Below are positions 29,840 through 45,480 of a DNA stretch of 64,000 nucleotides, in pieces (position 1 is the first letter of the stretch; every line of letters begins with the position of its first letter). Source of the DNA: an uncultured Actinomycetes bacterium. Its GTDB lineage: Bacteria > Actinomycetota > Thermoleophilia > Gaiellales > JAICJC01. The notes beneath the pieces were generated by a model. It saw only the letters and a program-made list of their open reading frames with translations. It was not told where the DNA came from and made no database searches. Location: NCBI GenBank assembly GCA_963731515.1, contig CAVSVU010000022.1, forward strand, positions 979 through 64,978. The letters run 5' to 3'. The translations under genes were made by a program, and so were the position numbers.

Positions 29840-30916
29840 CTAGCGGCGAAGGCGGCCGATGCGCTCGTTCGCGCCCGACGCCCAGCATGAGCCGCGCGGC
29901 GTGCAGACGACAGCGTCGAAGCTGCCGCGGTCGAACCGCGTCCAGGAGAACCCGCCGTCGGTCGAGATGTCGCTGCCGGTCAGCCCGACGGCGAGCGCCG
30001 TCCCCGCGGTGTGCGGAATCCAGGTCGCGCCCGAGCGGTATGCGCCCGGTGCGGCGCCGGCGCCGACGAGCGTCCAGGTGCGGCCGCCGTCCGCGGTCAG
30101 TGCGAGCGACCGCGGAGCCGTGGCCGGATTCGCGAAGTCGCCGCCGATGGCGAGGCCCTGCAGGCTGTTGCGGAACGCGACGGCGAAGATGCCGGAGCTG
30201 TCGCCGCTGGCGATGGGCGTCTGCGAGACCTTCCAGTGGTGGCCGCCGTCGGTCGAGCGGTACACGCGCCCGCCCTCCGAGCCGCCGCTGCCGAACCAGG
30301 CGTCGTGCCGGCCCGACGTGGTGATGCACTCGTTCGAGGCGGCGAAGCCGAACTCGTTGGGCGAGTTGGCGGCCGGGACGTTCGCGGCCGGGTCGACGTG
30401 CCAGCTGCGGCCGCCGTTGGCCGTGATCAGCACGCGGAAGCGCCCGTTGACCGGGTCGCTCAGGATGAGCCCGTGGCTGCGGTCGAAGAACGCCATGCAG
30501 TCGTAGAACGCCTGCGGATTCGTGTTGCGGTTCGTGATCCGCCAGTGGCGGCCGCCGTCGGACGTGAGGTAGGTGCGGAAGTCGCCGGGGTGGTCGCCGA
30601 TCGACATGAGGACGGCGTGGCGGGCGTCGAAGGCCTTGAGGCCGCGGAACTCGAGCGCGCTCGTGCCGGCGGGCCCGACGCTCTTCCACGAGCGACCGCC
30701 GTTGGTCGTGCGCAGCACGGTGCCGTCGCTGCCGCTGGCCCAGACGACGTGCCGCGAGACCGGGCTGATCGCGCGCAGATCGGCGCTGCCGCCGTGGTGG
30801 ACGACGCGCCAGGACGGCGCGTGGTGGGCGTTCGCTGCCGCAGGCACCGCCGCGATCGCGATGAGCGCCAGTGTCGCCACCGCGCCGAACCGCCCCCTCG
30901 TTGGCAGCCTCCGCAT
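29840..30916 (-). CDS. Secreted BNR/Asp-box beta-propeller (Ycf48/sialidase-like)
   Basis: Repeated TxDGGxxW boxes; signal peptide; TATGAT-N7-ATG. Confidence 0.88.
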   Translation of the reverse strand: MRRLPTRGRFGAVATLALIAIAAVPAAANAHHAPSWRVVHHGGSADLRAISPVSRHVVWASGSDGTVLRTTNGGRSWKSVGPAGTSALEFRGLKAFDARHAVLMSIGDHPGDFRTYLTSDGGRHWRITNRNTNPQAFYDCMAFFDRSHGLILSDPVNGRFRVLITANGGRSWHVDPAANVPAANSPNEFGFAASNECITTSGRHDAWFGSGGSEGGRVYRSTDGGHHWKVSQTPIASGDSSGIFAVAFRNSLQGLAIGGDFANPATAPRSLALTADGGRTWTLVGAGAAPGAYRSGATWIPHTAGTALAVGLTGSDISTDGGFSWTRFDRGSFDAVVCTPRGSCWASGANERIGRLRR

Positions 30917-30978
30917 GGGCGAGATCATACCCTCACTTCGATCTCGATAGTCACCCCCGGCGGTCTAGAGTTTTCCCC

Positions 30979-31395
30979 GTGGCACACCGCGTCACGACGA
31001 TCGACGCGCTCGGCCCCGGGGTCTTCCGCAAGCTGCGGCACGAGCTGGGCGTGACGGCGTTCGGCCTGAACGCGATCGTGCTCCCGCCCGGCACCGAGTG
31101 GTTCAACCACTTCCACCACCGTCAGGACGAGGTCTACTTCGTCCACGGCGGGACGGCCGGGTTCGAGGTCGAGGGCGAGTCGTTCGAGCTCGGCCCGGGC
31201 GGCGCCGTCCACGTCGAGACGACGACGCCCAGGCGCTTCTGGAACGCCGGCGACGACGAGCTCGTGCTCCTCGCGATCGGCGGCCGCGACGGCTACGTGG
31301 AGCGCGACGGCGAGATGGTCGACCCCGCCGATGTGGAGCGGCGGCGGCGGTTCTCGGACGGGGATCTCGATGCGATCCGCAGGCGGGAGGCGTGA
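30979..31395 (+). CDS. Cupin domain protein
   Basis: LRHELGVTAFGLN, HFHHRQDEVYFVHGG; TAGAGT-N7-GTG. Confidence 0.87.
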   Translation: MAHRVTTIDALGPGVFRKLRHELGVTAFGLNAIVLPPGTEWFNHFHHRQDEVYFVHGGTAGFEVEGESFELGPGGAVHVETTTPRRFWNAGDDELVLLAIGGRDGYVERDGEMVDPADVERRRRFSDGDLDAIRRREA

Positions 31396-31480
31396 GTGTC
31401 CCCCGACGCTGACCTCTCCGTCGCCGTTGCCGACGACGACGCGTTTCCGGAGGTCATGGCGCAGGAGTAGGATCCGGCTC

Positions 31481-31852
31481 GTGACCGCCGTCTCGTGGAA
31501 GATGATCCAGCACGGGTGGGCGGTCCATGCGAGCGACGGTGAGCGTGTCGGCGTCGTCTTCCTCGTCGTGGGCGACGAGAACGAGGACATCTTCGACGGG
31601 CTCGCGATCACCCAGCACACAGGCTTCGCGTTCCACAACTACGCCGACCGTCCCCACTACATCGAGGCGGCGAAGGTGGGAGAGATCGACGACTCCGGAC
31701 GCGTGAACCTCACGATCACGGCGGACGAGTGCTGCCATCTGCCTGTGCACGACCCGCCCGAGAGCGCCGAGATCATCCCGGAGAAGGCGTCGCTCATCGA
31801 CCGGGCGCGCAGTGAGATCGAGCACCTCACCGGCGAGGATCGCACCAACTGA
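31481..31852 (+). CDS. Hypothetical protein, PRC-barrel/DUF2171-like
   Basis: VSWKMIQHGWAVHASDGERVG..GDENEDIFDGLA; TAGGAT-N7-GTG. Confidence 0.75.
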   Translation: MTAVSWKMIQHGWAVHASDGERVGVVFLVVGDENEDIFDGLAITQHTGFAFHNYADRPHYIEAAKVGEIDDSGRVNLTITADECCHLPVHDPPESAEIIPEKASLIDRARSEIEHLTGEDRTN

Positions 31853-31955
31853 CCCGAGCGCAGTTGGGGGTTAATCCCCATTGAGGCAGCGGCGGCAGCA
31901 GGCGTAGGCTCGCTGCGCCTCCCACGGTGTGCGGACGCCGGGGTGGTCTAGACAT

Positions 31956-32000
31956 GAAGGCCGCCGGCCCGCGAGGGAGCGCCTCGAGCCGGCGGCCTTC
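31956..32000. terminator. Strong hairpin at the left edge of the stress island
   Basis: GAAGGCCGCCGGC ... GCCGGCGGCCTTC 13-bp stem plus inner CGAGG/CCTCG stem. Confidence 0.6.
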
Positions 32001-32018
32001 GTCTGGAGCGGGGTGGGG

Positions 32019-32219
32019 TCACCTGCGGCCGCGCGACGCGCACAGCTTGCACGGGCGCAGGTTCGACATCGCGGCGGCCTGCTCGACGTCGATCGCGGCC
32101 AGGGACTCGGCCCGGGAAAGGCAGCCCTCGGTCCAGTGATACGGCCCGCGATCTCCGCGCACGATGCATTCGACGCGCGCCCACACCTTGCGGGAATTCG
32201 GTCGATGCCCGTTCGCCAT
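32019..32219 (-). CDS. Small putative Zn-binding protein (YHxxxxC...RPCKLC)
   Basis: H-C-CxxC pattern like Ada-type metal-binding modules; GGGTAT-N9-ATG upstream; hairpin downstream. Confidence 0.55.
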   Translation of the reverse strand: MANGHRPNSRKVWARVECIVRGDRGPYHWTEGCLSRAESLAAIDVEQAAAMSNLRPCKLCASRGRR

Positions 32220-32448
32220 TCCCGCCGGATACCCGGGGCGGGTGGTGGTTTACGCCAAGTGCTAGGTGGGGCACTCGGGTGTGGCGGCTTCGGTCCCTTC
32301 GGCAGGAGGAGCGGATCGAAGCCGCACTCACCCTCGGATGGATCCACGGAATCGTCCCGATGGGATGATCCCCGGGGAGCCTCGGCGCCGGAGAGTGGGC
32401 GTCCGAGGACGCGTCACGGGACGCGAGTGGGGGGAAGGGATACCTGGG

Positions 32449-32940
32449 ATGTTCGGCGTCGCGCTCACGCCTGCGGGTGTGAGGGATGACCTCGTGGCGT
32501 ACTGCGAGGATGCTGCGGAGTGGCGGTTGCACAGGGCTGCCGAGTGCTCGTCGAATGGGCGCAATCTGGCGGCGGTCGATGCCCTCGAGGCGGCGGCCGA
32601 GAGCATCGCGGAGCTGCCCGATGACGATCCGGCGCTGACCCGGCTGGCGTCGGTGTATGACCAACTCGGCGACGACCAGCGCGCGCTTGCGTTCACCGAA
32701 CAGCGGCGGGTGGTGAAACGGCATGGCTGGGACGGGCCCGCGACGCCAGGCGCACTCCTCGCCCGAGTCACCCGACACGCCGAGGCGATCCTCGAGAACC
32801 GGCTCGAGCTCCCTGGAGGGAATCGGGCCGCCCTCCAGCTCGTCTCCGTCGCGTCCGGCCAGACCGCCGATCGCGCTCCGGGCGCCGCCGGGGCGACGAC
32901 GCCGTTGGCACCGACCGGGACGAGCGCGGCGCCGCGCTGA
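32449..32940 (+). CDS. Hypothetical helical protein
   Basis: Protein-like composition (AEWRLHRAAE...LPDDDPALTRL); purine-rich RBS; start uncertain. Confidence 0.6.
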   Translation: MFGVALTPAGVRDDLVAYCEDAAEWRLHRAAECSSNGRNLAAVDALEAAAESIAELPDDDPALTRLASVYDQLGDDQRALAFTEQRRVVKRHGWDGPATPGALLARVTRHAEAILENRLELPGGNRAALQLVSVASGQTADRAPGAAGATTPLAPTGTSAAPR

Positions 32941-32948
32941 CGCGATCC

Positions 32949-33608
32949 GTGGCGGCTGACCAGAAGGAGCGGGGAGAGAGGCGCTGGCCGATGGCCGCCG
33001 CCGTGCTTCTCGCCGGGGTGCTGCGGACAGCCCTCCCGTCCCAGCTCAGGGTGAATGACGCCCGCTGGCTCTTTCTCGTGCTGCTCGCCGTCCTCGTCAT
33101 CGTGCTGATCGTCGGCGACCCCGGCCGGATCGATCGTCAGGCGAGGTGGCTGCGGAACCTGACCGGCGCGCTCATCGGCCTGATCACCATCGTCAACGGC
33201 GGCTCGTCGGTGAAGCTCGTGATCAGCATCGTCTACAGCGAGCCCTTCACCCAGACCGCCCGCGTGCTGCTGGCCTGCGGCGGCATCATCTGGCTGACGA
33301 ACGTGATCGCGTTCGGCCTGTGGTACTGGGATCTCGACCGCGGCGGCCCGGCCGCCCGGGCGGCGGGATCGACGATCCGGCCGGCGTTTCTCTTCCCCGA
33401 GATGTCCGTCCCGGAGCACGTTCGCGAGGGCTGGTACCCGACGTTCGTCGACTACCTGCACCTGTCCTTCAACACCGCGATGGCCTTCAGTCCGACGGAC
33501 GTCTCGGCGATCAAGCCGTGGGCGAAGGTGATGATGATGGCCGAGGAGGCCGTCTCGGTGACCGTCGGCGTCCTCGTCGTCGCGCGAGCCGTCAACATCC
33601 TGTCCTAG
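32949..33608 (+). CDS. DUF1345-like membrane protein
   Basis: IWLTNVIAFGLWYWDLDRGGP, FLFP, WYPTFVDYLHLSF..AFSPTD. Confidence 0.85.
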   Translation: MAADQKERGERRWPMAAAVLLAGVLRTALPSQLRVNDARWLFLVLLAVLVIVLIVGDPGRIDRQARWLRNLTGALIGLITIVNGGSSVKLVISIVYSEPFTQTARVLLACGGIIWLTNVIAFGLWYWDLDRGGPAARAAGSTIRPAFLFPEMSVPEHVREGWYPTFVDYLHLSFNTAMAFSPTDVSAIKPWAKVMMMAEEAVSVTVGVLVVARAVNILS

Positions 33609-33647
33609 GCCGTTGCCGATCGCGGGTCCGCGCGTATCATTGGTCAC

Positions 33648-33905
33648 ATGCAGGATTCGCGAAGGACAGTGCTCCGCTGGATCGGCACGGTGATGGGCCT
33701 GGCGCTGATCGCGCTTGGTGTGCACATGGGTCTGATCCATGGGTCGCTCGGCTGCCGGCCCTCCGGGACGGGGCAGGCCTACGTCTGCAGCGGTCACCCG
33801 CCAAACCACCCGCACGCCGTGCTCGGAATCCTGGTCGGCGCGGTCGGGCTGGCAGTCCTGGTCGGATCTCGCCGCTACCTCTCGTACTACGGTCGGGCCG
33901 AGTAG
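33648..33905 (+). CDS. Small two-TM membrane protein
   Basis: Two hydrophobic helices flanking a Cys-pair loop; TATCAT-N7-ATG. Confidence 0.6.
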   Translation: MQDSRRTVLRWIGTVMGLALIALGVHMGLIHGSLGCRPSGTGQAYVCSGHPPNHPHAVLGILVGAVGLAVLVGSRRYLSYYGRAE

Positions 33906-33997
33906 GTAGTGCCGGCGACGTAACGCGACGTGCGCGCCTGGCCGGTGACGGCACCCTCGCGGGGCAGGACTGACGGCACCGCCTGCGAAATTCGACC

Positions 33998-34438
33998 GTG
34001 ATGACAAGCCAGACGCGTCTCGAGCGCCGGCTCGACCGGATGATCGCTCGCGCCCAGACCCCGCGAACGGCGGCACTTGTGATCGCCACGGTGACGATCA
34101 CGATCACCATTGCCGCCGGCGTGCTGATGACGATCGTCGACCACAAGGGTTTCCCGTCGGTCGGGTCGGGGCTCTGGTGGGCCGTCCAGACCGTGACGAC
34201 CGTCGGCTACGGCGATCACGTTCCCGAGACCGCCCCCGGCCAGATCATGGCTGCGATCGTGATGCTCCTCGGGATCGGATTCGTCACGGTGATTACCGCG
34301 TCGATCACCGGCGCTTTCGTGGCACGGACGCGCAAGGATGAGCGGGACGCGGGCGACGACCGTCCGTCTGGCGAGCAGTTCGACGAGGTCATCGAACGTC
34401 TGCGACGGATCGAAGCCGCCCTGACCCAGCGCCCATAG
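33998..34438 (+). CDS. Two-TM potassium channel (KcsA-like)
   Basis: LWWAVQTVTTVGYGD selectivity filter. Confidence 0.92.
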   Translation: MMTSQTRLERRLDRMIARAQTPRTAALVIATVTITITIAAGVLMTIVDHKGFPSVGSGLWWAVQTVTTVGYGDHVPETAPGQIMAAIVMLLGIGFVTVITASITGAFVARTRKDERDAGDDRPSGEQFDEVIERLRRIEAALTQRP

Positions 34439-34476
34439 TCACTCCTGAGCCGATGCCGACCTGTGTGGGCGGGGCC

Positions 34477-34504
34477 GGTTTGACGGTGTGGTGGTGACGG
34501 GCAT
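34477..34504 (+). promoter_or_regulatory. SigB/SigF-type promoter candidate
   Basis: GGTTT-N17-GGGCAT upstream of 34560. Confidence 0.45.
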
Positions 34505-34559
34505 GAGGTTCAGCGGCCGCAGGACGCGGCGCGGCGAGTGGCGTTTGGAGGCGAGACCG

Positions 34560-34931
34560 ATGACGGATCGAGAGAAGCACGAAGACGATGCCTCGGTGAA
34601 GCCGAGCGAACAGCGCGGCGGAGGCACGCCAGGCGACGAGGAAGCGCAGCGCAAAGGCCCGTGGGCGGCGAAGGCGGCGGACGGCGTCGTCCCCGCGGAA
34701 CTCGGTGGGTCGGACGCTCCGCCCGACATGCTGGGAGATGACCCCGAGCTCGGGAGTGAGGTGCTCGGCAGAACGACCGGATCGGACGAACCGGCGACTC
34801 GGGACGGCATCGACGTAAGCGATGGGGATGATGCTGACGCGACGAGCGACGGCGGCGCAGATGTTCCGGACGACGTCGAGCCTGACCTGAAGGATGCCGC
34901 GGCAACGCGCTTACGACGTGGCCCCGAGTGA
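34560..34931 (+). CDS. Acidic hydrophilic (hydrophilin-like) hypothetical protein
   Basis: GGAGG RBS; D/E/G-rich, probably disordered. Confidence 0.75.
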   Translation: MTDREKHEDDASVKPSEQRGGGTPGDEEAQRKGPWAAKAADGVVPAELGGSDAPPDMLGDDPELGSEVLGRTTGSDEPATRDGIDVSDGDDADATSDGGADVPDDVEPDLKDAAATRLRRGPE

Positions 34932-35003
34932 TCCGCAACCCCGAGGCGCGTCCGTTATCGACGTCCCGCACGTCGTCGGCGTTGGCGAGGCGCGGGCTGG
35001 GGC

Positions 35004-35165
35004 GTGGCGCAGTCCTCATCGGTGCTGGCGCACCGGGCCGAGCACTACGAGATCGCGGCGTGCGGTGCCGCCCGCGCCCTCGCTAGCCGGCGGGGGCGTT
35101 CCGACTCGCCCAAGTTTCCGTCGCAGGCGTGGACGAGAAGCCCGGCCGCCGACGACAAGGTGGTC
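35004..35165 (+). pseudogene. Degenerate YciF/DUF892 fragment
   Basis: AHRAEHYEIAACGAARALA...AADDKV resembles the YciF QxVEHYEIAxYG motif. Confidence 0.6.
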
Positions 35166-35359
35166 CAAAGGGGCGCGCGACGCCGTCCGAGCCTAGGCGG
35201 CGGTCGACTGCATCGCTGACGGAGCCGGCGACCAGCCCACAAAACCAGAGGATGAACCGCTACGCCGCGTCATACCGACGGCATCTGGGTGCCCGCTCGA
35301 CATGCGCGCCTTCGTCAGGACCAGTGCCGTCGGGTGTCCTGATCAGCGCAACAGGCTCA

Positions 35360-35415
35360 GGTTCACTCACCGAGCCCAGCACAGCCCGATCAAGAACTCC
35401 CTTTGCGTTCCCTTG
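35360..35415 (-). pseudogene. Universal stress protein (USP) C-terminal remnant
   Basis: GNAKGVLDRAVLGSVSE resembles the USP motif GxxGxxxxxRxxLGSVS. Confidence 0.45.
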
Positions 35416-35601
35416 TCGCCAGTCGGATTCGTCTCGTTCGGTCGAGTGGGCCGTCCGGCCGGCCACCCGCTCGGATGAGACCCCGACGTGGAGAGGGTCC
35501 GCCCCTTGGCGTCGGGTAGCTGTCATCTACCGCGAGTGTTCCGGGCGCAAGCGCGGCGGCGGCGATCGCCTCCAGATCGCGTGGAGGATTGAGGTGTGCC
35601 C

Positions 35602-35754
35602 TCAGACGGGCGTTTCGGGGTCGCCGTGGACGTCGCTCTGTTTGTCGGGTGATGTGGGCTGTTTGGGAGGGTTGGACTCTGGCGTCGCGCGAGCCTTGGT
35701 AGGCCCGACGGCCTTCGGCGGCGCCCCTTGGCCCTGGGTGGTATTCCTTGGCAT
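35602..35754 (-). CDS. 50-aa hydrophilic small protein (below ORF-track cutoff)
   Basis: GGAG RBS; MPRNTTQGQGAPPKAVGPTKARATPESNPPKQPTSPDKQSDVHGDPETPV-stop. Confidence 0.45.
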   Translation of the reverse strand: MPRNTTQGQGAPPKAVGPTKARATPESNPPKQPTSPDKQSDVHGDPETPV

Positions 35755-35780
35755 CGCTCTGCTCCCGTCGTGGTCATGGA

Positions 35781-35825
35781 CTGATTCGGCGGGCGCGTAT
35801 CCGAAGCCTGCGCCCGCCGAATCGG
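35781..35825 (-). terminator. Hairpin downstream of DUF892 copy 1
   Basis: GATTCGGCGGGCGC / GCGCCCGCCGAATC; homologous hairpin at 41428-41470. Confidence 0.6.
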
Positions 35826-35853
35826 CGATCCATGTCGTGCTGAGGCGTCTCTG

Positions 35854-36354
35854 TTACCGCGCGAAGACCGGGGCGTCGGCGAGGGTGAGGTCGAGGACGT
35901 GATCCCAGCTTGCGGCGATCTTGTCGGCCATGGCCTGCTCGTCGGCGCGGTTGTGGCGGGCGATCTCGGCGGTCTCGTGGTCGCCGGCGCGGATTGCCAG
36001 TCGCTCGAGCAGTTCGTATGCCGCGATCTCGATGTGCTCGGTGACGTAGCCGTCGCGGGCGTTCTTGGCGGGCTTGTCGCCGCGGACGCTGTCGATGACG
36101 GACTTGAGGGCGCCGCCGATCATCGTCTGGGCCTGCTTGCGGCCGGACGTGCCCTCACCGATCGCTTCCAGCCGGCGGGTGAGGCGGGCCTCGTGCTGCT
36201 CGGTCTCGGCGTGGTGGTGGCGAAGTAGCGCGAGTGTGGGCTCGTCGTCGGTGTTTTCGATCATCGAGTCGAGCATCTGCAGGACGTTCTGCTCCATGGC
36301 GTGGGTGTCCTGGATGTAGTCGACGAGCTTGTCGTGCAGTTCGGGGTTGGTCAT
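35854..36354 (-). CDS. DUF892 (YciE/YciF) ferritin-like protein, copy 1
   Basis: YIQDTHAMEQ, HHAETEQH, TEHIEIAAYELL, DEQAMA. Confidence 0.92.
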   Translation of the reverse strand: MTNPELHDKLVDYIQDTHAMEQNVLQMLDSMIENTDDEPTLALLRHHHAETEQHEARLTRRLEAIGEGTSGRKQAQTMIGGALKSVIDSVRGDKPAKNARDGYVTEHIEIAAYELLERLAIRAGDHETAEIARHNRADEQAMADKIAASWDHVLDLTLADAPVFAR

Positions 36355-36409
36355 TGGTTCCTCTCTGAGAGTTCGGTGCGCCGAGGGTTCGGCGCGCCGT
36401 TCTTGGTGA

Positions 36410-36667
36410 CTACGTGGTCGCGGGCCGGCGACCAGAGGTCTCGCGGGCGCCGAGCAGCTTCGGCAAGAGCACCAGCTCGTACACGGCCGCGAGGCCGACC
36501 AGGATGTAGATGATGCGGCTGGCGGCGTTGGTTTGGCCGAAGTCGAGTCCGCCGCAGATCCAGGCGACGAGGTCGAACTTGAAGAGTCCGATCAAGCCCC
36601 AGTTCAGGCCGCCAACAATGATCAGCAACCGGCACAGGCCGTCCAGCCCGTTTCGTGCGTTCAACAT
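36410..36667 (-). CDS. DUF378 family membrane protein
   Basis: LLIIVGGLNWGLIGLFKFDLVA...SRIIYILVGLAAVY. Confidence 0.92.
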   Translation of the reverse strand: MLNARNGLDGLCRLLIIVGGLNWGLIGLFKFDLVAWICGGLDFGQTNAASRIIYILVGLAAVYELVLLPKLLGARETSGRRPATT

Positions 36668-36804
36668 GAGTGTCCCTTCTCGCGTAGTGCGGTGGAGGTG
36701 GCAGTGGGTTCATCCCCAACCGCGCCACCTCATCACCTGGGTTTGGGAGGGGCGGGTGTCTGCTGGCGGTGACGCCCGGAGACACCCGCCCGGAGTGGTG
36801 TGGG

Positions 36805-37428
36805 CTAGGCGATGTGTGCGACGACGTTGGCGGTGCCCAGCGTGATGCCCGCGCTGAACAGGTTCACGCCCAGGGTGCTGTTGAGCGCGCCTGCCGCGGT
36901 GGTGGTGAGTGTGGCCTTGACGTCGTCGACCTTCACCGTTGGGGGGTGTTTGACGATTGTCGCGTTGCTGAGATCGAGGTTGAGGATCCGCACGCGCGAC
37001 TTCGGGTCGCCGTTGACGGCGGCGGTTAGGCCGGGGTGTGCGCTGATCTGGATCCGGAAGTTGGTCAGCGTCAGTGTGTGGCCGTTGGCGACGTTTACGA
37101 ACTCAAGTCCGCCCGAGTGGTTGATGTGCCCGACGAGGCTGGTCGCGTCGACGCGACCTCTGGTGATCGGGAACGAGTAGCGCAGCGAGAGCCCGCGATG
37201 CCACGACGCCACCCGGACGCTGGCAGGGTTGACGGGCAGCGGCAGGATGCCGTTCGAGATCAACGCCTTGGTGGTGGCGGGGTCGGTCTGGAGGGTGGTC
37301 GCTTCGCCCTTCAGCTTGACGGTGCTCGCGCTGCTGGCGCCCGCCGTGGTGGGGGCGAACACCGCGACGACCGCGACCAGGGCTGCAGCCGAGGCGATCA
37401 GCCTTCTCGCGTGTGTGGTCATGAACAT
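36805..37428 (-). CDS. Secreted HtaA-like beta-rich protein
   Basis: Signal peptide; FPITRG...GHINHSGGLEF, LTLTNFRI, LTTTAAGALN; GAGGAG RBS. Confidence 0.75.
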   Translation of the reverse strand: MFMTTHARRLIASAAALVAVVAVFAPTTAGASSASTVKLKGEATTLQTDPATTKALISNGILPLPVNPASVRVASWHRGLSLRYSFPITRGRVDATSLVGHINHSGGLEFVNVANGHTLTLTNFRIQISAHPGLTAAVNGDPKSRVRILNLDLSNATIVKHPPTVKVDDVKATLTTTAAGALNSTLGVNLFSAGITLGTANVVAHIA

Positions 37429-37494
37429 GAACATCTCCTCTTCTGGATGGCCCCGACACCACGTGTCGCATGTTTGTCGAGGGTTTGTAGCGGC

Positions 37495-37549
37495 AGGGTA
37501 GCCACAAACGGCGGCCCTGTCAAATGTCTGTCCACTGTATGTGTATACT
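37495..37549. promoter_or_regulatory. Divergent promoters with CarH-type operator (three 11-bp-phased TnnACA repeats)
   Basis: Plus-strand TGTCAA 37518, TGTCCA 37529, TGTGTA 37540; minus-strand TTGACA-N17-TACCCT; plus-strand TATACT-N6-ATG. Confidence 0.8.
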
Positions 37550-37555
37550 GGCGGC

Positions 37556-38449
37556 ATGAGCGCAGCAGACCCGCCCGCGCCGCGTCTGCGCATCGGCCAG
37601 CTCGCGAGTCGGGTTGGCGTCTCGGCGACGTTGTTACGCGCGTGGGAGCGTCGCTACGGTCTGCTCGAGCCGGTGAGAACCGACCATGGATACCGGCTCT
37701 ACAGCGACGAGGACGAGGCTCGAGTCCGTTCGATGCTTGCCCTGATCACCGGCGGTGTCGCCCCACAGCAGGCGGCGCGCATGGTCGTCTCCGGCGCCGC
37801 ACCTCCGGCCGTCTCGCGTGGCGACGACACGTCTCCCGACGACGACCGCGCGCTCCTCGGCGCGGCCCTTGAGCAGTTTGACGATGTCGCGGCCAACGCC
37901 GTCTTCGACGCGTTGCTCGCGCGATACACGGTCAGGACGGTGCTCCTTTCCGTCGTCGTCCCCTACCTTGCCGACCTCGGCGACCGGTGGGCACGCGGTG
38001 AGGCCACGACCGCGCAGGAGCACTTCGCAAGCAACATGCTTCGTGGTCGCCTGCTCGGCCTAGCGCGGGGGTGGGACGCGGGCGTCGGGCCGCGCGCCCT
38101 TCTCGCGTGTCCGAGCGGCGAGCGTCACGACCTCGGCTTGCTCGCCTTCGGTATCGCCCTGCGCGGCCACGGATGGCGGATCACCTATCTCGGCGCCGAC
38201 ACCCCACCCGAGAGTCTGCAAGAGTCCATCGCCGCGCTCGCGCCGAGCGCGATCATTCTCGCCGTGACTATCACCGCGGACACGCAGGCGGTGGGCGACG
38301 GCCTCGCCCAAGAAGGGCGACTGGTCGCGATCGGCGGGCGCGGGGCGACACCCGAACTCGCGGCGAAACTGGGAGCGGAGGTGCTGGACTGTGATCCGGT
38401 CACCGCCGCCGACCGGATCGCTGCCGCCGGCGCGAGTTACCGACCGTGA
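37556..38449 (+). CDS. carH: MerR-family B12-binding photoreceptor/repressor (CarH/LitR-like)
   Basis: LRAWERRYG..RTDHGYRLYS HTH; W-x9-EH (WARGEATTAQEH); ExHxxG (GERHDLG); YLGADTP. Confidence 0.88.
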   Translation: MSAADPPAPRLRIGQLASRVGVSATLLRAWERRYGLLEPVRTDHGYRLYSDEDEARVRSMLALITGGVAPQQAARMVVSGAAPPAVSRGDDTSPDDDRALLGAALEQFDDVAANAVFDALLARYTVRTVLLSVVVPYLADLGDRWARGEATTAQEHFASNMLRGRLLGLARGWDAGVGPRALLACPSGERHDLGLLAFGIALRGHGWRITYLGADTPPESLQESIAALAPSAIILAVTITADTQAVGDGLAQEGRLVAIGGRGATPELAAKLGAEVLDCDPVTAADRIAAAGASYRP

Positions 38450-38497
38450 CCGACCTTTCGGGCGAGCGTGTCGTAGGGCGAACCGAGGAGTGTTCGT

Positions 38498-38971
38498 TCA
38501 GGCGAGCGCGCGTTTGGCAGCGGCGATTCGAAAGGGCTCGAGCCTGCTGCGCTGGTCTTCGGCGCGTCGGATCAGCGCGTCCAGGTCGACGCCGAGATCG
38601 CTGTGAGGGAGTTGCGCCAGGGCGCGCCAGCCAGCGAGCTTGCCTTCGATCCCGAGCGACAGAGCCTCCGTTTCCATCAGGCGGCTCAGGTCACCACTGC
38701 CGGTGATCCGCTCGTCGAACTTGACCCGGCTCACCGTCTCGAGCACGCGGCTACCCGCCTGCTTGATCGGGCTGGGCGTAACGTCCAGGGCTTGCATGAC
38801 CTGCTCGAGCGCTGCGCGATCCTCTTCGATGTCGGCCTGCAGGCGCTCGAGGAATGCGCCGAACTCGGTGCCCTCATTGTTGGGCCGCATCTTCTTCATC
38901 AGATCGATCGCAAACGCGGAGCCGGCCAAGTGATCGTTCAGGTATCTGCTCAGAGGCGTCGACTCGGACAC
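38498..38971 (-). CDS. Conserved hypothetical ferritin-like protein
   Basis: YLNDHLAGS, EEDRAAL, LSRLMETEALSLGIEGKLAGW. Confidence 0.8.
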   Translation of the reverse strand: MSESTPLSRYLNDHLAGSAFAIDLMKKMRPNNEGTEFGAFLERLQADIEEDRAALEQVMQALDVTPSPIKQAGSRVLETVSRVKFDERITGSGDLSRLMETEALSLGIEGKLAGWRALAQLPHSDLGVDLDALIRRAEDQRSRLEPFRIAAAKRALA

Positions 38972-38980
38972 GAGCGCCGC

Positions 38981-39066
38981 GTACCCTCGCTCGCGCCCCA
39001 CCAAACGCGGCAACCGAGGCGTCACCCCGCGCCCTCGGGAGGTTCGAGGCCTGTGCGTGTGGGTAT
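38981..39066. promoter_or_regulatory. Back-to-back SigB/SigF-type promoters
   Basis: Minus strand: GTTT-N16-GGGTAC-N9-GTG(38971); plus strand: GGTTC-N15-GGGTAT-N9-GTG(39076). Confidence 0.65.
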
Positions 39067-39075
39067 GTCGGCAGC

Positions 39076-39489
39076 GTGACCAAACTGCGGCCAGATGACG
39101 ATCGATCCCTTGGTGACCTGACGAAGCAGCTGTCGCGTGACGTGTCGCAGCTGGTGCGGAGCGAGGTGGCGCTTGCCAAGGCGGAGGTTTCGGAGCGCGC
39201 GGCGACGATGGCGCGCGGCGTGGCCATGCTCGCCGTCGGCGTGCTCCTTGCGGTGATCGTGCTCGCGTGCCTGGTTGCGGCTGCGATCGCCGCGCTTTCG
39301 CTGATCGTGGATGTCTGGCTCGCGGCGTTGATCGTGGCGGCCGTCGTGGCCGTGATAGGCGTGATCGTGGCGATGATCGGCGTGAAGGCGCTGCGCTCGG
39401 CGGGGCCGCCCTTGCCGCTGGATACCGTGGAGTCCGCAAAGGAGGATGTCGCATGGGTGAAGACACGCGCGAACTCCGGCGCGATGTAG
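39076..39489 (+). CDS. DUF1469/YqjE-like membrane protein (phage holin_3_6 family)
   Basis: RSLGDLTKQLSRDVSQLVRSEVALAKAE, two TM segments, P..TVESAKEDVAW. Confidence 0.88.
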   Translation: MTKLRPDDDRSLGDLTKQLSRDVSQLVRSEVALAKAEVSERAATMARGVAMLAVGVLLAVIVLACLVAAAIAALSLIVDVWLAALIVAAVVAVIGVIVAMIGVKALRSAGPPLPLDTVESAKEDVAWVKTRANSGAM

Positions 39490-39617
39490 ATGCGGCGCGG
39501 GATCAGCTCGGCGACACGGTTGAGGCGCTGGCCTATCGCGCGAACGCGCCCAAGCGGGCGAAGAATCGATTGACCGACTCGCTGGCGAGGTTGAAGCAGC
39601 GAGTGAGCCGCAAGTAG
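39453..39617 (+). CDS. DUF3618 domain protein
   Basis: AAGGAGG RBS; ELRRDVDAARDQLGDTVEALAYRAN. Confidence 0.85.
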   Translation: MGEDTRELRRDVDAARDQLGDTVEALAYRANAPKRAKNRLTDSLARLKQRVSRK

Positions 39618-39631
39618 TAGGAGGAGTTTCA

Positions 39632-39841
39632 ATGGGCGCAGCAGATTTCGCGACGGTTGTGGTGAAGCCGGCTTTGACCGGGACCATGAGGGCTCGCAAG
39701 ACGAAGGCACGGCAGAACAGCGTCGCCAAGAAGCAATGGATCGCCTATATCGGCGTGGCGATCCTGACCACCGTCCTGACCAAGACGCTGAATGAGTTCA
39801 TCGAACGCCGATTCGCGGCCGAAGACGCTGACGTCTCCTAG
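39632..39841 (+). CDS. Small membrane-anchored hypothetical protein
   Basis: AGGAGGAG RBS; lies within the operon; single hydrophobic segment. Confidence 0.55.
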   Translation: MGAADFATVVVKPALTGTMRARKTKARQNSVAKKQWIAYIGVAILTTVLTKTLNEFIERRFAAEDADVS

Positions 39842-39843
39842 CG

Positions 39844-40941
39844 ATGCCGACCGAGAGCGCCCGGGTTGCCGCGGAGACCGCGCGTGAGGCCGTCGCGTCG
39901 GACATTGCAAAGCTGAGCGAGCGGCTCAGTAACCCTGTGCCGCTGATCCGGCTGCCACGGCTGGCACGTCATCCGACGAGGCCACGGCCACGCGCCGACC
40001 CTGCGCCGAGCGCTCCGACCGAGCCCGATCGGACGCCGGCCGCCACCGGCCTCACCGATCTGCCCGCGAGTGACTACCGGAGCGTGGTCGCTCGGGCCGT
40101 CAAACGCACCCTGGCGGACAATATGACCAGTGTCGGCAAGGGTGTCGCATACGGTGCCTTCTTCGCAATCCCCTCGGCGATGATCGTGGCGCTCGGCGTG
40201 CTCAATCTGACCGCCGGCCCCGACAGTATCAACACGCTGGTGGACAGGCTCAACGGCGTCGTGCCCGCAAGTGCGCGAGAGCTGATACGCACCAACCTGC
40301 AGCAGGTATCGACCTCTCGCGGCGGCGGCGTGATGGTGATCGTCGGCCTGGTGCTGGCGGTATTTTCGCTGATGGGCGCGGTGCAGACCGTGATGTGGGG
40401 CCTCAACGTGGCGTATGAGCGTCGCGAGCAACGAAGCTTCATCCGCCAGCGCGTGTCCGCGTTCTTGATCACGATGATCATGACCGCGGCGCTGGTGCTG
40501 GTGTTTGCGGTGCTCGTGCTGGCGCCGTACATGACCGGGTGGGTCGGAACGGCCAGCGGCCACCCGACGGAAGTGTCGTGGCTGTGGTGGACGTTGCAGT
40601 GGCCGCTGCTGTTCGTGGCGCTTCTCGTGGCGTTCGCCGGCATCCTCTACCTCGGCCCCGACGTCGACCATCCCCGGTTTCGGTTCATCACGCCGGGAGC
40701 CGTCGCGGCCGCGGTGCTCTGGATCGTCGGATCAGCGCTCTTCGGCCTGTACGCCTCGGGACTCGCGTCCTACAACAAGGCGTGGGGGTCACTCGCCGCC
40801 GTGATCGTCACACTGACGTGGCTCTGGTTGTGCAGCGTCGCGGTCCTGTTCGCCGCGGAGCTGAACGCCGAGCTCGAGCGAACGCGGGAGATCCATGCCG
40901 GCGCGAACCCGGCCGACACACTCACCGCGCGACACAAATGA
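39844..40941 (+). CDS. YihY/virulence factor BrkB family protein
   Basis: VAYGAFFAIP, LNVAYERREQRSF, LYLGPD, ITPGA, YNKAWGSLAAVIVTLTWLW. Confidence 0.92.
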   Translation: MPTESARVAAETAREAVASDIAKLSERLSNPVPLIRLPRLARHPTRPRPRADPAPSAPTEPDRTPAATGLTDLPASDYRSVVARAVKRTLADNMTSVGKGVAYGAFFAIPSAMIVALGVLNLTAGPDSINTLVDRLNGVVPASARELIRTNLQQVSTSRGGGVMVIVGLVLAVFSLMGAVQTVMWGLNVAYERREQRSFIRQRVSAFLITMIMTAALVLVFAVLVLAPYMTGWVGTASGHPTEVSWLWWTLQWPLLFVALLVAFAGILYLGPDVDHPRFRFITPGAVAAAVLWIVGSALFGLYASGLASYNKAWGSLAAVIVTLTWLWLCSVAVLFAAELNAELERTREIHAGANPADTLTARHK

Positions 40942-41012
40942 GCGGCCAAGACTCCCGGGCTGGCCAGGTCAGGGCCGGCTCTACCAGACGGTCGGCGCCC
41001 GCCGGCGGAAGA

Positions 41013-41264
41013 TCACTCAGACAGTCGTTCGTGTACGACTCGGGCGAGGACATCCAGGCTCAGTCCTCTGCGCTCGAGGTCGTCCAACGCATCCCGTACG
41101 GGGGCCTCTTCGAGCTCGGTTGTGGTCGTGTCGACGAGATCGCGGAAGCGCTGCCACAACCGTTCCCGTTCATGGCTTGTGACCATCGCTTTGGCGAGCA
41201 GGCTCGCGGCCTGCTCGGCGAGCGGGTCGAGTGACTGCGGCTTGGTGGCCTGTTCTACGGGCAT
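41013..41264 (-). CDS. Hypothetical 83-aa helical protein
   Basis: GAGAGGA RBS before ATG 41264; protein-like composition. Confidence 0.6.
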   Translation of the reverse strand: MPVEQATKPQSLDPLAEQAASLLAKAMVTSHERERLWQRFRDLVDTTTTELEEAPVRDALDDLERRGLSLDVLARVVHERLSE

Positions 41265-41427
41265 AGGCGAATCCTCTCCGACGCGATAACGTGGAATGAT
41301 GATGATATTCCCTCCTCGCGCGAAAACCACCCGCGAGGCGTTGGCCGTCTGCGGCTGGTTGCCCCGGGACTAGGCCCAAGCCGGCGACCTGATCGTCGCA
41401 GAATGGCCGCGGCTGGAGCCGCCTGAA

Positions 41428-41470
41428 CCGACACGGCGGGCGTCTTCAAAGCCTGCGCCCGCCGTATCGG
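41428..41470 (-). terminator. Hairpin downstream of DUF892 copy 2
   Basis: CCGACACGGCGGGCG / CGCCCGCCGTATCGG. Confidence 0.6.
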
Positions 41471-41487
41471 CGATCAGCGGGGTTGGT

Positions 41488-41988
41488 CTACCGCGCGGCG
41501 AGCTGGGCGTCGGCGAGGGTGAGGTCGAGGACGTGATCCCAGCTTGCGGCGATCTTGTCGGCCATGGCCTGCTCGTCGGCGCGATTGTGGCGGGCGATCT
41601 CGGCGGTCTCGTGGTCGCCGGCGCGGATTGCCAGTCGCTCGAGCAGCTCGTATGCCGCGATCTCGATGTGCTCGGTGACGTAGCCGTCGCGGGCGTTCTT
41701 GGCGGGCTTGTCGCCGCGGACGCTGTCGATGACGGACTTGAGGGCGCCGCCGATCATCGTCTGGGCCTGCTTGCGGCCGGACGTGCCCTCACCGATCGCT
41801 TCCAGCCGGCGGGTGAGGCGGGCCTCGTGCTGCTCGGTCTCGGCGTGGTGGTGGCGAAGTAGCGCGAGTGTGGGCTCGTCGTCGGTGTTTTCGATCATCG
41901 AGTCGAGCATCTGCAGGACGTTCTGCTCCATGGCGTGGGTGTCCTGGATGTAGTCGACGAGCTTGTCGTGCAAGTGGGTATCGGTCAT
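41488..41988 (-). CDS. DUF892 (YciE/YciF) ferritin-like protein, copy 2
   Basis: Nearly identical to 35854-36354. Confidence 0.92.
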   Translation of the reverse strand: MTDTHLHDKLVDYIQDTHAMEQNVLQMLDSMIENTDDEPTLALLRHHHAETEQHEARLTRRLEAIGEGTSGRKQAQTMIGGALKSVIDSVRGDKPAKNARDGYVTEHIEIAAYELLERLAIRAGDHETAEIARHNRADEQAMADKIAASWDHVLDLTLADAQLAAR

Positions 41989-42042
41989 CGTGTTCCTCTC
42001 AACAGGGTTCGGTGCGGGCGATCGCGTGGGGCAGATGACCCG

Positions 42043-42540
42043 TCAGGCTGTTTCGTCCGGGAGTTCGGCGGCGGCCAGACTGACCGAGGCAGCCATCACC
42101 TCGGTGAGGTGGCGCTGCTGGATCGGGAGCGCCCAGCCGACGAGCTCTGCGACCTGGTCGTGAGCGTGGCCGCCGTTCATGGCCTTGAGCACTGACCAGT
42201 GGCCGACTTCGCCGGCCTCGGCCATCGTCAGGAACTCGAACCCGTCCAGCGAATCGGACTCGTCGTCGAGGTAGGTCTTCATCATCTCTGCGCCCTTGGC
42301 CTTGGTTGACCGAGCCTCTTCGAGGATCGCCGTTTTCTTCCCGTCGAACGACTCGGAGAGCTCCGTGCAGCGCTTCTCGGTCTCGGCCGCCTCGTCGTGC
42401 ATCCGGTGCAGCTTCGCTTCGAGCTCTGACTCGCCGTCCTGCCCAGCCAGCTTCAGCACCTTCGTGGTCGCCGCCTGGGCGGCCATCGCCAAACCGGTCA
42501 CCTCGCCGAGCTTGGTCTCGAGATTCGTGAGATCTGCCAT
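42043..42540 (-). CDS. Ferritin-like four-helix-bundle protein
   Basis: AAGGAG RBS; KLGEV..LA, HDEAAETE, FEFLTMAEAGEVGHW, IQQRH. Confidence 0.8.
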   Translation of the reverse strand: MADLTNLETKLGEVTGLAMAAQAATTKVLKLAGQDGESELEAKLHRMHDEAAETEKRCTELSESFDGKKTAILEEARSTKAKGAEMMKTYLDDESDSLDGFEFLTMAEAGEVGHWSVLKAMNGGHAHDQVAELVGWALPIQQRHLTEVMAASVSLAAAELPDETA

Positions 42541-42542
42541 GT

Positions 42543-43061
42543 CTACTCCTTCGTTGTTTGGACGGGCACGCCGTCTGGCGTCGCCCGGTACGACTCCCGC
42601 GGCCGCTCTGGGCGTCCGAGCCCGAGTGGTCGGGTCCGAGCGTCTCGTGGTTGGTGTGTGCGCCAGCCGTCTACGTGTCGGCGATCGGTGGCGGTGGCGT
42701 GTTCGGCGGCGTGGTCGACGTCTGGAAGGACGTCGAACAGGCGGTCGAGTCGCAGCAAGTCGAGAAGCCGTTTGACGACGCCGGTTGCACCGGCCAGGAC
42801 GACCGCCGCGTCGGGTTCGCGTCGCAGCGGCGCCACGGCCCGGAGCAGGGTCCCGACGCTGGCGCAGTCAAGGAACGTCGCAGCGCTGAGGTCGATGACG
42901 AGGTGGCGATGGCCGCAGGTGATCTCGCGTTCGATCGCCTCTCCCAGCGTCGCTGCGTAGGCCAGGTCGAGTTCGCCTGCTATGCGCACGTATGACCCTT
43001 GTGGGGCGAAGGTTTCGGTCGTCACCGAGGGCGGTTGGGGGCCATAGGACGTCGGGGGCAT
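42543..43061 (-). CDS. STAS-domain anti-sigma factor antagonist (RsbV/SpoIIAA-like)
   Basis: IAGELDLA, LVIDLSAATFLDCASVGTL, VKRLLDLLRLDRLF; start uncertain (43061 or 43079). Confidence 0.88.
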   Translation of the reverse strand: MPPTSYGPQPPSVTTETFAPQGSYVRIAGELDLAYAATLGEAIEREITCGHRHLVIDLSAATFLDCASVGTLLRAVAPLRREPDAAVVLAGATGVVKRLLDLLRLDRLFDVLPDVDHAAEHATATDRRHVDGWRTHQPRDARTRPLGLGRPERPRESYRATPDGVPVQTTKE

Positions 43062-43085
43062 GGTGGCCCACAGTAGCACAGATGC

Positions 43086-43140
43086 GTAGGTTTATAGGAG
43101 TAAATATGGAGATTTAATTCATATATTGCGGAGATATGAC
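43086..43140. promoter_or_regulatory. AT-rich divergent control region with 11-bp-phased GKAG repeats
   Basis: GTAG 43086, GGAG 43097, GGAG 43108, GGAG 43130. Confidence 0.55.
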
Positions 43141-43164
43141 CGCCCGCCTGGGTATACTTCTGAG

Positions 43165-43812
43165 ATGGCCGAGGTGGCGCTCTACAGCATTGGCGCGGTG
43201 GCGCGCATGACCGGGGTGGCGGTTGGGACGCTGCGTACCTGGGAGGAGCGGTATGGATTGGTGGTCGCGAGCCGCAGCGCCGGTGGTCAGCGGCGTTACA
43301 GCCGTGACCAGCTCGAGCAGTTGATGTTCGTCGCGCGCGAGGTGGGCACGGGCATGTCGCCGGGCGATGCGCACAGGCTGCTGGCGGATCGCGGCTCGAC
43401 GGCGACCGGGACTCCGGAGGGGACGACGGGCGGCGTGTTGATTCTGCTCGCCGAGCGCGACCCGTACGCGGCGAGCTATCTGGACTACTTCCTGCGCACG
43501 GAGGGCTATCGGGTCGAGCTGGCCGGGGATGCGGAGGAGGCGGAGCGGCGCTTCGCATCGCTTTCGCCGCAGGTGGTGATCGTGGAGCTGCTGCTCTCGG
43601 GCGGCCTGGGTGGCGCGCTGGTCCAGCAGCTCAAAGCATCGGGCGTCCTGGTCATCGCGATCTCTCCGCTGGCGGCCGCCGATATCTCCGCGGAGCTGGG
43701 CGCCGACGCGTTCCTGCAGAAGCCGATCGACCCGGTGGTGTTGCTCTCCACGGTGCGTGACCTGCTCGGAACCAGCGCGCTGACGGAAGCGCGGATGCGC
43801 TCCACCTCGTGA
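43165..43812 (+). CDS. MerR (CarH/MlrA-type) HTH fused to an atypical receiver domain
   Basis: YSIGAVA..TLRTWEERYG..RSAGGQRRYS; REC ILLAERD, VVIVELLL (Asp replaced by Glu), GADAFLQKP. Confidence 0.88.
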   Translation: MAEVALYSIGAVARMTGVAVGTLRTWEERYGLVVASRSAGGQRRYSRDQLEQLMFVAREVGTGMSPGDAHRLLADRGSTATGTPEGTTGGVLILLAERDPYAASYLDYFLRTEGYRVELAGDAEEAERRFASLSPQVVIVELLLSGGLGGALVQQLKASGVLVIAISPLAAADISAELGADAFLQKPIDPVVLLSTVRDLLGTSALTEARMRSTS

Positions 43813-45203: not shown

Positions 45204-45247
45204 GATCACGACAGCCCGCTACTGGAGCCGGATTCTGGCCGGTGCAG

Positions 45248-45336
45248 CGGAGGGGGAGGGATTCGAACCCTCGGTACGCCTAACGACGCACAACGGTTTT
45301 CGAGACCGCCGCATTCAACCACTCTGCCACCCCTCC
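45248..45336 (-). tRNA. tRNA-Ser(CGA)
   Basis: GGAGGGG/CCCCTCC acceptor stem, GCGGT-CTCGAAA-ACCGT anticodon arm, long variable arm, GAGGG-TTCGAAT-CCCTC. Confidence 0.96.
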
Positions 45337-45352
45337 GGGAGGCCGGCGCATT

Positions 45353-45459
45353 GTAGATGGTTGATCGGTACGTCCACGCGCGCCTGGACGCGCAGGCGCA
45401 TCGGATCGCGGTCAAGGGATTGCCCTTGAGATTACGGGACGCACCGATCAACCATCTAC
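45353..45459. repeat. 107-bp MITE/REPIN-like element with 23-bp terminal inverted repeats
   Basis: GTAGATGGTTGATCGGTACGTCC ... GGACGCACCGATCAACCATCTAC (1 mismatch); two internal hairpins. Confidence 0.7.
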
Positions 45460-45480
45460 TCGGATACGCTTTTGCGGCCC

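Follow-up and report, generated by a model that had tools for sequence, protein, structure and literature searches.

What does a B12-dependent light sensor control in a bacterium in which no carotenoid gene accompanies it? Among B12 photoreceptors CarH serves as the model, and it is in wide use as a component of optogenetic tools; to our knowledge, nearly all of the natural outputs described for it are carotenoid genes. The question is raised by a locus in an uncultured member of the soil order Gaiellales (Actinomycetota), in which a carH (litR) gene stands divergent from the gene of a secreted protein that resembles HtaA (the HtaA-like gene). The locus lies in a stretch of 64,000 nucleotides (contig CAVSVU010000022.1 of assembly GCA_963731515.1, here C22, positions 979–64978; hereafter the window, to which all positions without a contig or locus label refer), part of a genome of 4.35 Mb in 25 contigs with 72% G+C and 91% completeness. 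We propose, with a probability of roughly 0.75 judged from the sequence, that the locus is a class I CarH/LitR light switch driving a secreted protein of the HtaA fold. An earlier reading of this DNA (the original prediction) had remarked on the lack of a crt gene in the window; the remark extends to the 91%-complete genome, in which no match to SQS_PSY, the phytoene/squalene synthase family, or to DNA_photolyase was detected.

The divergent regulator has the architecture of an adenosylcobalamin (AdoB12)-type photoreceptor. Its Pfam domains are MerR_1 (residues 12–76), B12-binding_2 (103–165) and B12-binding (180–273), and its alignment with Thermus thermophilus CarH (TtCarH; 3whp/5c8d; E = 2e-35) is full-length. 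In this alignment WARGEATTAQEH pairs with WHRGEIGVAEEH of TtCarH at the Wx9EH motif, and GERHDLG with GERHEIG, the segment containing the His that ligates cobalt. As described in the accessible part of PMC8156234, Wx9EH caps the adenosyl group and the B12-binding motif runs ExHx2G-x41-SxV/T-x22-27-GG; the light-response signature of CarH/LitR proteins given in the accessible part of PMC11796333 (GxxW, EH, GxxH, GxxxP) is complete in the translation as GDRW, EH, GERH and GADTP. ATG 37556 is the best start. A GTG listed as the start at 37541 is unlikely, as it falls within the operator described below. The −10 element of carH ends only 6 nucleotides upstream of ATG 37556, so the carH mRNA is probably leaderless.

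Between the two genes lie three tandem 11-bp direct repeats (operator O1, Table 1), which read TGTCAA-N5-TGTCCA-N5-TGTGTA on the forward strand, with hexamer starts at 37518, 37529 and 37540. Within the window the triple TnnACA pattern has a single occurrence, and none of 100 shuffles contains it; the exact triple repeat is found twice in the 4.35-Mb genome, each time at a carH copy (one on C22, the other on contig C13). A weight matrix built from 24 distinct operators of relatives gives 48.6 and 49.9 bits at the two carH sites, the rest of the genome scoring at most 18 bits. Published CarH operators are tandem 11-bp repeats of the form 5'-nnnnTnnACAn-3', and that of TtCarH has three, one of which contains the −35 element, according to the accessible part of PMC9304148; the predicted layout in the window matches this TtCarH design exactly. 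One repeat coincides with the −35 element of a putative promoter for the divergent gene or genes, and the sequence TTGACA followed by TAnnnT recurs in 25 of 26 distinct promoter regions, with a spacer of N17 in 24 and of N18 in one (L065). The TATACT −10 element on the carH strand is likewise kept in relatives, and its position inside the first repeat unit implies that carH would be autorepressed. The original prediction had recognized the MerR–B12 regulator with its Wx9EH and ExHxxG motifs, the 11-bp spacing of the repeats, the TTGACA-N17-TACCCT promoter and the overlap of one repeat with the carH −10 element, and all of these stand at their coordinates, the repeats being unique in the window.

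A second array (O2) lies within the predicted transcript of the divergent gene. Its hexamers stand at the same 11-bp spacing and match 10 of the 12 specified bases, a score reached here by 0 of 300 shuffles. Similar arrays at 10/12 are present in 20 of 26 distinct 5' untranslated regions, with no more than 1 of 300 shuffles reaching 10/12 in each. The orientation of O2 is that of O1 in the clade of the window and inverted in another clade; such flipping speaks for a protein site over an RNA element. A scan of positions 30000–46000 against Rfam returned one tRNA and otherwise sub-threshold matches only, the 5' untranslated region and the hairpins described below fitting no known RNA family. By analogy with the operators of Myxococcales CarH, which are of a repeat/pseudo-repeat type in the accessible part of PMC9304148, O2 is a candidate second CarH site of the type pseudo-repeat/repeat/pseudo-repeat.

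Table 1. Features of the carH/HtaA-like locus, in window coordinates.
Feature	Position	Strand	Basis or remark
carH/litR (class I, AdoB12-type), 297 amino acids	ATG 37556..stop 38449	+	Pfam, TtCarH alignment, motifs
carH −10, TATACT	37544..37549	+	sequence; falls in the 11-bp unit of DR1 (37539-37549)
Operator O1, three tandem 11-bp direct repeats nnnnTnnACAn	37517..37549	-	shuffles, genome scan, conservation
O1 direct repeat DR1, TACACA	37545..37540	-	
O1 direct repeat DR2, TGGACA	37534..37529	-	
O1 direct repeat DR3, TTGACA	37523..37518	-	
Putative promoter of divergent gene(s): −35 TTGACA (= DR3, 37523..37518), N17, −10 TACCCT (37500..37495)	37495..37523	-	
Second repeat array O2 (GCTACA-N5-TCGACA-N5-GCGACA)	37464..37491	-	about +1 to +25 of transcript, between −10 and ribosome-binding site
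Secreted HtaA/CR-fold protein, Sec signal peptide, cleavage near AGA/SS	36805..37428	-	Pfam, AF2 model, Foldseek, hhalign
Strong GC hairpin just 3' of the HtaA-like stop, 12-bp stem	36750..36791	-	folding
DUF378 (PF04070) small membrane protein, 85 amino acids	36410..36667	-	Pfam 79 bits against a cut-off of 25
Hairpin upstream of DUF892	36374-36399	-	promoter/hairpin scan and folding
C22-only 556-bp insertion carrying the DUF892 gene	35840..36395	-	blastn of C22 against C13 and against itself
DUF892 gene (PF05974, ferritin-like), 166 amino acids	35854..36354	-	Pfam 82.9 bits against 23.7, both copies

Conservation of the pairing was followed in two sets of loci: 36 that encode relatives of the secreted protein (17 close, at least 55% identical, and 19 more distant), and 29 around the best CarH homologues of the order Gaiellales. 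In 16 of the 17 close loci carH is divergent from, and directly upstream of, the HtaA-like gene; it is adjacent in 0 of the 19 distant loci, 4 of which have short upstream flanks. Seen from the side of carH, an HtaA-like partner is present in 18 of 29 loci. The triple repeat is kept in 13 of the 17 close loci and 23 of the 29 carH-anchored loci, its T, A, C and A positions fixed and its spacers and nn positions variable across loci whose CarH proteins are 50–74% identical. The single exception to the pairing, L010, retains an operator (one pseudo-repeat and two repeats), the promoter and the second array (3140–3260) before an HtaA-like–folE pair with no carH upstream, and no CarH was found in its genome with the query used. 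L038, from the Solirubrobacterales, has a triple repeat 67 nucleotides before the HtaA-like ATG and two CarH genes elsewhere in its genome. The neighbourhood survey that the original prediction had proposed therefore returns a recurrent arrangement: 16 of the 17 close loci have carH beside the HtaA-like gene, and six loci, as described below, have DUF378 first after the operator. What is conserved at the core of the module is carH paired with the HtaA-like gene.

What follows the HtaA-like gene in relatives points to light. Among 46 downstream same-strand open reading frames annotated with Pfam in the 17 close loci, folE is found in 9 loci (with a further partial match in L010), a photolyase in one (L017), and a DUF4267-like gene with an amine oxidase in L014, L015 and L020. 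In Pseudomonas, light induces the LitR targets phrB, folE and an FAD oxidoreductase, as reported in the accessible part of PMC9758184, and since folE, photolyase or amine oxidase genes follow the HtaA-like gene in relatives, we take the HtaA-like gene to head a light regulon. The genome of the window holds no FolE or photolyase of the relatives' type by tblastn. Other carH genes face other targets: with a triple-repeat operator, a DUF378–fasciclin–DUF3140 operon in L065, L068 and L069, which belong to other Gaiellales families; an extracytoplasmic-function (ECF) sigma gene in L047, L049 and L053; and an amine oxidase, which carH heads in L057. Elsewhere in the window's genome, at G000 C11:157673-158918, two overlapping tblastn pieces mark an amine oxidase, possibly frameshifted, that is 64–68% identical to the enzyme of the relatives' CarH operon; no operator-like site was found near it.

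The predicted target itself is most likely translated from ATG 37428 into 207 amino acids, as in its homologues (alternative starts, 37434 and 37422). The upstream ATG of a 262-residue open reading frame is disfavoured, the homologues being similar to the 207-residue form. Pfam assigns HtaA at 26.4 bits against a cut-off of 24. An AlphaFold (AF2) model built on 34 homologues has a predicted local distance difference test score (pLDDT) of 77.5, exceeding 80 over most of residues 40–209, and its ten best Foldseek matches in the PDB are all conserved-region (CR) domains of ChtA, HtaA and HtaB (E from 5.6e-7 to 1.5e-4, template-modelling scores 0.5–0.67). Profile–profile comparison by hhalign with 8 strong HtaA domains from two actinobacterial genomes gives a probability of 92% over residues 85–184. 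A search of the sequences of solved structures with the HtaA-like profile returned no chain of HtaA (best E 0.88); the relation to HtaA is visible by fold, Pfam and profile–profile comparison only. Through these three routes the description of the secreted protein as HtaA-like holds, resting in part on the predicted model. An NCBIfam search gave no match for the HtaA-like, DUF378 or DUF892 proteins, and the ESM Atlas placed the family in unnamed actinobacterial clusters, plus one cluster with 11% HtaA members. More distant members adjoin genes for an ECF sigma factor with an RskA-type anti-sigma factor, for MarR or for BacA. In the Solirubrobacterales loci L029, L030, L032, L033, L034 and L037, distant HtaA-like proteins, often two-domain or in tandem, stand beside an ECF sigma gene, and in L029, L032 and L034 an anti-sigma gene of the RskA type was found as well. 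The arrangement recalls the mycobacterial SigK–RskA control of MPT70/83.

How far the switch reaches beyond the HtaA-like gene differs between the two genes that follow on the same strand. DUF378 is the first gene past a carH operator in L007, L009, L065, L066, L068 and L069 (L007 and L066 possibly representing the same genome), which makes it, by gene order, a recurrent CarH partner in Gaiellales. In the window it lies behind a 137-nucleotide spacer that folds with a minimum free energy of −67 kcal/mol (z = −3.9; 0 of 200 shuffles as stable), and the hairpin within could be a terminator lacking a U-tail or an mRNA stabilizer; read-through could include DUF378 in the transcript. For the DUF892 gene the picture differs. 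The insertion that carries it is a 93.6% copy of a DUF892 region at 41434–42016 (gene 41488–41988), the DNA match spanning 35787–36380, and DUF892 is absent from the corresponding site in C13 and from all 17 close HtaA-like and all 29 carH-anchored loci. Control of DUF892 by CarH is doubtful, and the gene is probably an incidental passenger. Of the three targets named by the original prediction, then, the HtaA-like gene has a conserved pairing, DUF378 recurs but behind a hairpin, and DUF892 falls away as a contig-specific duplication.

Several observations weigh against the proposed switch. In the regulator, the SxV/T element at x41 reads AVT, with Ser replaced by Ala, and GG follows after 21 residues instead of 22–27; moreover, the NCBIfam CarH equivalog NF052513 scores 161 bits against a cut-off of 400 and so misses its threshold. 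Because this match, though below the cut-off, is full-length (CarH residues 13–278, model positions 9–265 of 274), we file the protein as a divergent member of class I CarH/LitR. A consensus sigma-70 scan of 35500–38800 called no promoter, since TACCCT matches TATAAT at 3 of 6 positions; our promoter assignment rests on conservation of TTGACA-N17-TAnnnT and not on the consensus scan. The closest relatives of the window, L005, L006 and L008, are without folE or photolyase downstream, so that for this clade the link to light rests on CarH itself. The strong hairpins 3' of the HtaA-like gene and of DUF378 argue against a simple three-gene operon, and the loci compared are related by descent, which means that their counts are not independent.

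We propose the following mechanism, in which AdoB12 binding, dark repression, light release, autoregulation, the role of O2, read-through into DUF378 and the role in photo-oxidative stress are all drawn from homology. In the dark, a tetramer of AdoB12-bound CarH would sit on the three TnnACA repeats and, by covering the divergent −35 and the carH −10 elements, would keep both genes off, with O2 at the transcript start as a probable second, weaker binding site. Light would break the Co–C bond, the tetramer would disassemble and both promoters would fire, so that the secreted CR-fold protein would be produced as one component of the reaction to photo-oxidative stress. This promoter would, among related Gaiellales, also drive folE, photolyase or amine oxidase; in the genome of the window these outputs would have been lost or never present, leaving the secreted protein as the main output, perhaps with DUF378.

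The fold of the secreted protein invites another account of what such a switch achieves, and the original prediction had put it forward: a light-induced operon that sequesters photosensitizers or iron, in which the secreted protein binds heme or porphyrin and DUF892 binds iron. All solved CR-domain relatives bind hemin, according to the accessible part of PMC12494546, where the ligand is held by a Tyr of helix α1 (SxxxY), a helper His or Tyr between β6 and β7, and a Tyr of the α2–β11 loop that contacts a propionate. In the window family, however, helix α1 (model residues 52–60, PATTKALIS) has a Tyr in 0 of 34 homologues, and residues 36–85 are entirely without Tyr in 32 of 34. At the expected place of the propionate Tyr stands an invariant Phe193 (LFSAG) where true domains show YYTAG or MYGAG, an equivalence drawn by eye in a region outside the hhalign range. 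For the helper residue, V115 lies within that range opposite the GH of true HtaA domains, with nearby residue 119 being His in 24, Lys in 8 and Arg in 2 of the 34. An invariant, family-specific His106, which aligns to a Phe of true HtaA domains, could ligate a metal, and DUF892 does lie downstream on the same strand; the latter, though, is the C22-only insertion described above, set behind two hairpins, and no heme or iron transport genes, hmuTUV-type heme uptake genes included, were found among the annotated neighbours in the 17 close loci (downstream same-strand open reading frames) and 14 of the 19 distant ones. From these residues, canonical iron–tyrosinate heme binding by the HtaA-like protein appears unlikely and, given that the axial Tyr is missing in 34 of 34 homologues, we read the protein as an extracytoplasmic binder of some other ligand, probably hydrophobic or planar. 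Sequestration of heme, porphyrin or iron is not supported by these observations, and we consider it improbable.

A second alternative places the locus in B12 economy: CarH would partly sense the availability of B12, and the secreted protein would scavenge corrinoids, restoring the light-destroyed chromophore in a B12-auxotrophic host. The host is probably a scavenger that imports B12. Neither CbiC nor CobS was detected in the genome (91% complete), which does encode a PduO-type adenosyltransferase and so allows AdoB12 to be formed from B12 that has been taken up; proteins with a B12-binding_2 domain are limited to a MetH-sized protein, a 508-residue protein beside an MTHFR-like gene and the two CarH copies. 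CR folds accommodate a tetrapyrrole; in the present family another residue replaces the Fe–Tyr ligand, and one His is invariant. Such a protein might be imagined as a light-induced extracellular scavenger of corrinoids or metal-free tetrapyrroles that has given up heme-iron ligation and re-supplies the B12 chromophore, which we regard as a long shot; were it true, the B12 photoreceptor of a B12-auxotrophic soil bacterium would be coupled to replacement of its own chromophore, lost at each exposure to light, and, more widely, secreted proteins of the HtaA-like and fasciclin kinds would form, along with DUF378, an as yet unrecognized extracytoplasmic branch of actinobacterial light responses. 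The sole cobalamin riboswitch of the genome (68.7 bits; G000 C18:60925-61103, L079) precedes a protein with a DUF4430 domain, which we take to be a transcobalamin-type B12-binding domain. This sits well with a host short of B12, but it also means that a dedicated, riboswitch-controlled B12 binder already exists; no cobalamin riboswitch was found in the window or at the 17 distant HtaA-like loci scanned, and the operon partners in relatives (photolyase, folE and amine oxidase) point to light damage instead. We hold the B12-economy account to be quite improbable. The 508-residue protein itself, on contig C25 (L002 625-3218), consists of an unannotated N-terminus of 290 residues followed by B12-binding_2 and B12-binding domains.

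The distribution of carH bears on whether the module is a working one. CarH was found in 91 of the 201 genomes of the order (one of those counted, G060, is unpublished); within the genus, 9 of 30 other genomes have it. The carH module is accessory. Contigs C22 (69 kb) and C13 (66 kb) are colinear from end to end at about 97% identity (~95–99%), with a G+C of 0.70–0.71 against 0.72–0.75 in the remaining genome, and the two are either copies of an accessory element that was duplicated or variants from two strains placed in one bin. A search of sequencing runs listed 20 DNA datasets, from soil and rhizosphere metagenomes, and no RNA dataset. That the repeats reflect only promoter elements and coincidence, with CarH an orphaned or degenerating regulator carried by an accessory element, might be suggested by its patchy presence in the genus and by the lower-G+C contig in two copies, but is very hard to square with an exact triple repeat confined to carH loci in 4.35 Mb, with repeats conserved among variable spacers over deep divergence and with a CarH that is intact in both copies (C22 and C13), every motif present.

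Other genes of the window may be noted. Downstream of carH (38854–40938) are members of an actinobacterial holin-X family, DUF3618 and the BrkB/YihY membrane-protein family, small genes of an envelope or stress type; on the upstream side are a K+ channel with two transmembrane helices (33998–34435) and weak, below-cut-off matches to DUF202 and DUF1345. A MerR helix–turn–helix domain fused to a response-regulator receiver (43126–43809) is followed directly by a two-domain KaiC homologue (43809–45200); the host is a non-phototroph, and 5 kb separate this pair from the B12 light sensor.

The proposed CarH switch can be set beside known systems. With TtCarH (PDB 5C8D/5C8E, 3WHP) it shares the domains and motifs, the three 11-bp repeats with a −35 element in one of them and the divergent layout of regulator and target described in the accessible part of PMC9304148. 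It differs from TtCarH, whose targets are crtB and other carotenoid genes, in its secreted HtaA-fold target, its second repeat array in the 5' untranslated region and the Ala in place of the SxV/T Ser. The class II LitR proteins PplR and PmlR of Pseudomonas putida and P. mendocina provide a precedent for light-induced genes other than carotenoid ones: their regulon, which comprises phrB, folE, a gene for an FAD oxidoreductase and some genes without an assigned function, overlaps the genes downstream of the HtaA-like gene in Gaiellales relatives. Unlike the complete AdoB12-type class I CarH of the window, these class II proteins are without the Rossmann B12 domain and use a LOV partner, and the accessible part of PMC9758184 reports no HtaA-like or DUF378 genes in their regulons. 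The carH genes of L047, L049 and L053 stand divergent from ECF sigma genes, an arrangement like that of Streptomyces LitR–LitS; the window locus has no such sigma gene, and control would be direct.

The secreted product has its own points of reference. The corynebacterial HtaA, ChtA and HtaB hemophores have in common with it the β-sandwich CR fold and secretion; unlike them, the window protein is without the axial Tyr, has Phe at the presumed place of the propionate Tyr, consists of a single domain and has no anchor, and its family is found beside carH, ECF sigma/anti-sigma or MarR genes instead of hmuTUV. The mycobacterial SigK–RskA regulon, with the fasciclin proteins MPT70/MPT83, is light-induced in M. 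kansasii according to the accessible part of PMC9861118, and its secreted proteins are of unknown function; secreted proteins of this kind can therefore belong to actinobacterial light responses. The likeness is seen in the DUF378–fasciclin–DUF3140 operons headed by carH in Gaiellales and in the Solirubrobacterales HtaA-like genes beside an ECF sigma and an RskA-type anti-sigma gene. The difference is that the mycobacterial system uses a sigma/anti-sigma pair and the window a B12 repressor, and that the secreted protein has a fasciclin fold in the one and the HtaA fold in the other.

CarH, its operator logic and, for class II, LitR regulons beyond carotenoids (in the accessible part of PMC9758184) are already known. 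New, as read from the sequence, are a class I CarH with a Tyr-less secreted protein of the HtaA fold as its predicted output, conserved and in this genome almost the only one; the recurrent DUF378 and fasciclin partners of carH; and the second repeat array. Within the literature searched, no paper links CarH/LitR with HtaA, DUF378, bacterial fasciclin genes or Gaiellales.

Collectively, the locus suggests that an uncultured soil order, the Gaiellales, couples an AdoB12-type CarH with a textbook operator to a hemophore-fold protein that appears unfit for the known mode of heme binding. The compact natural promoter/operator pair, with its two repeat arrays, could serve studies of CarH–DNA recognition, and the module offers a testable entry into the use of light by non-pigmented soil bacteria and into the binding partner of the large Tyr-less HtaA branch.

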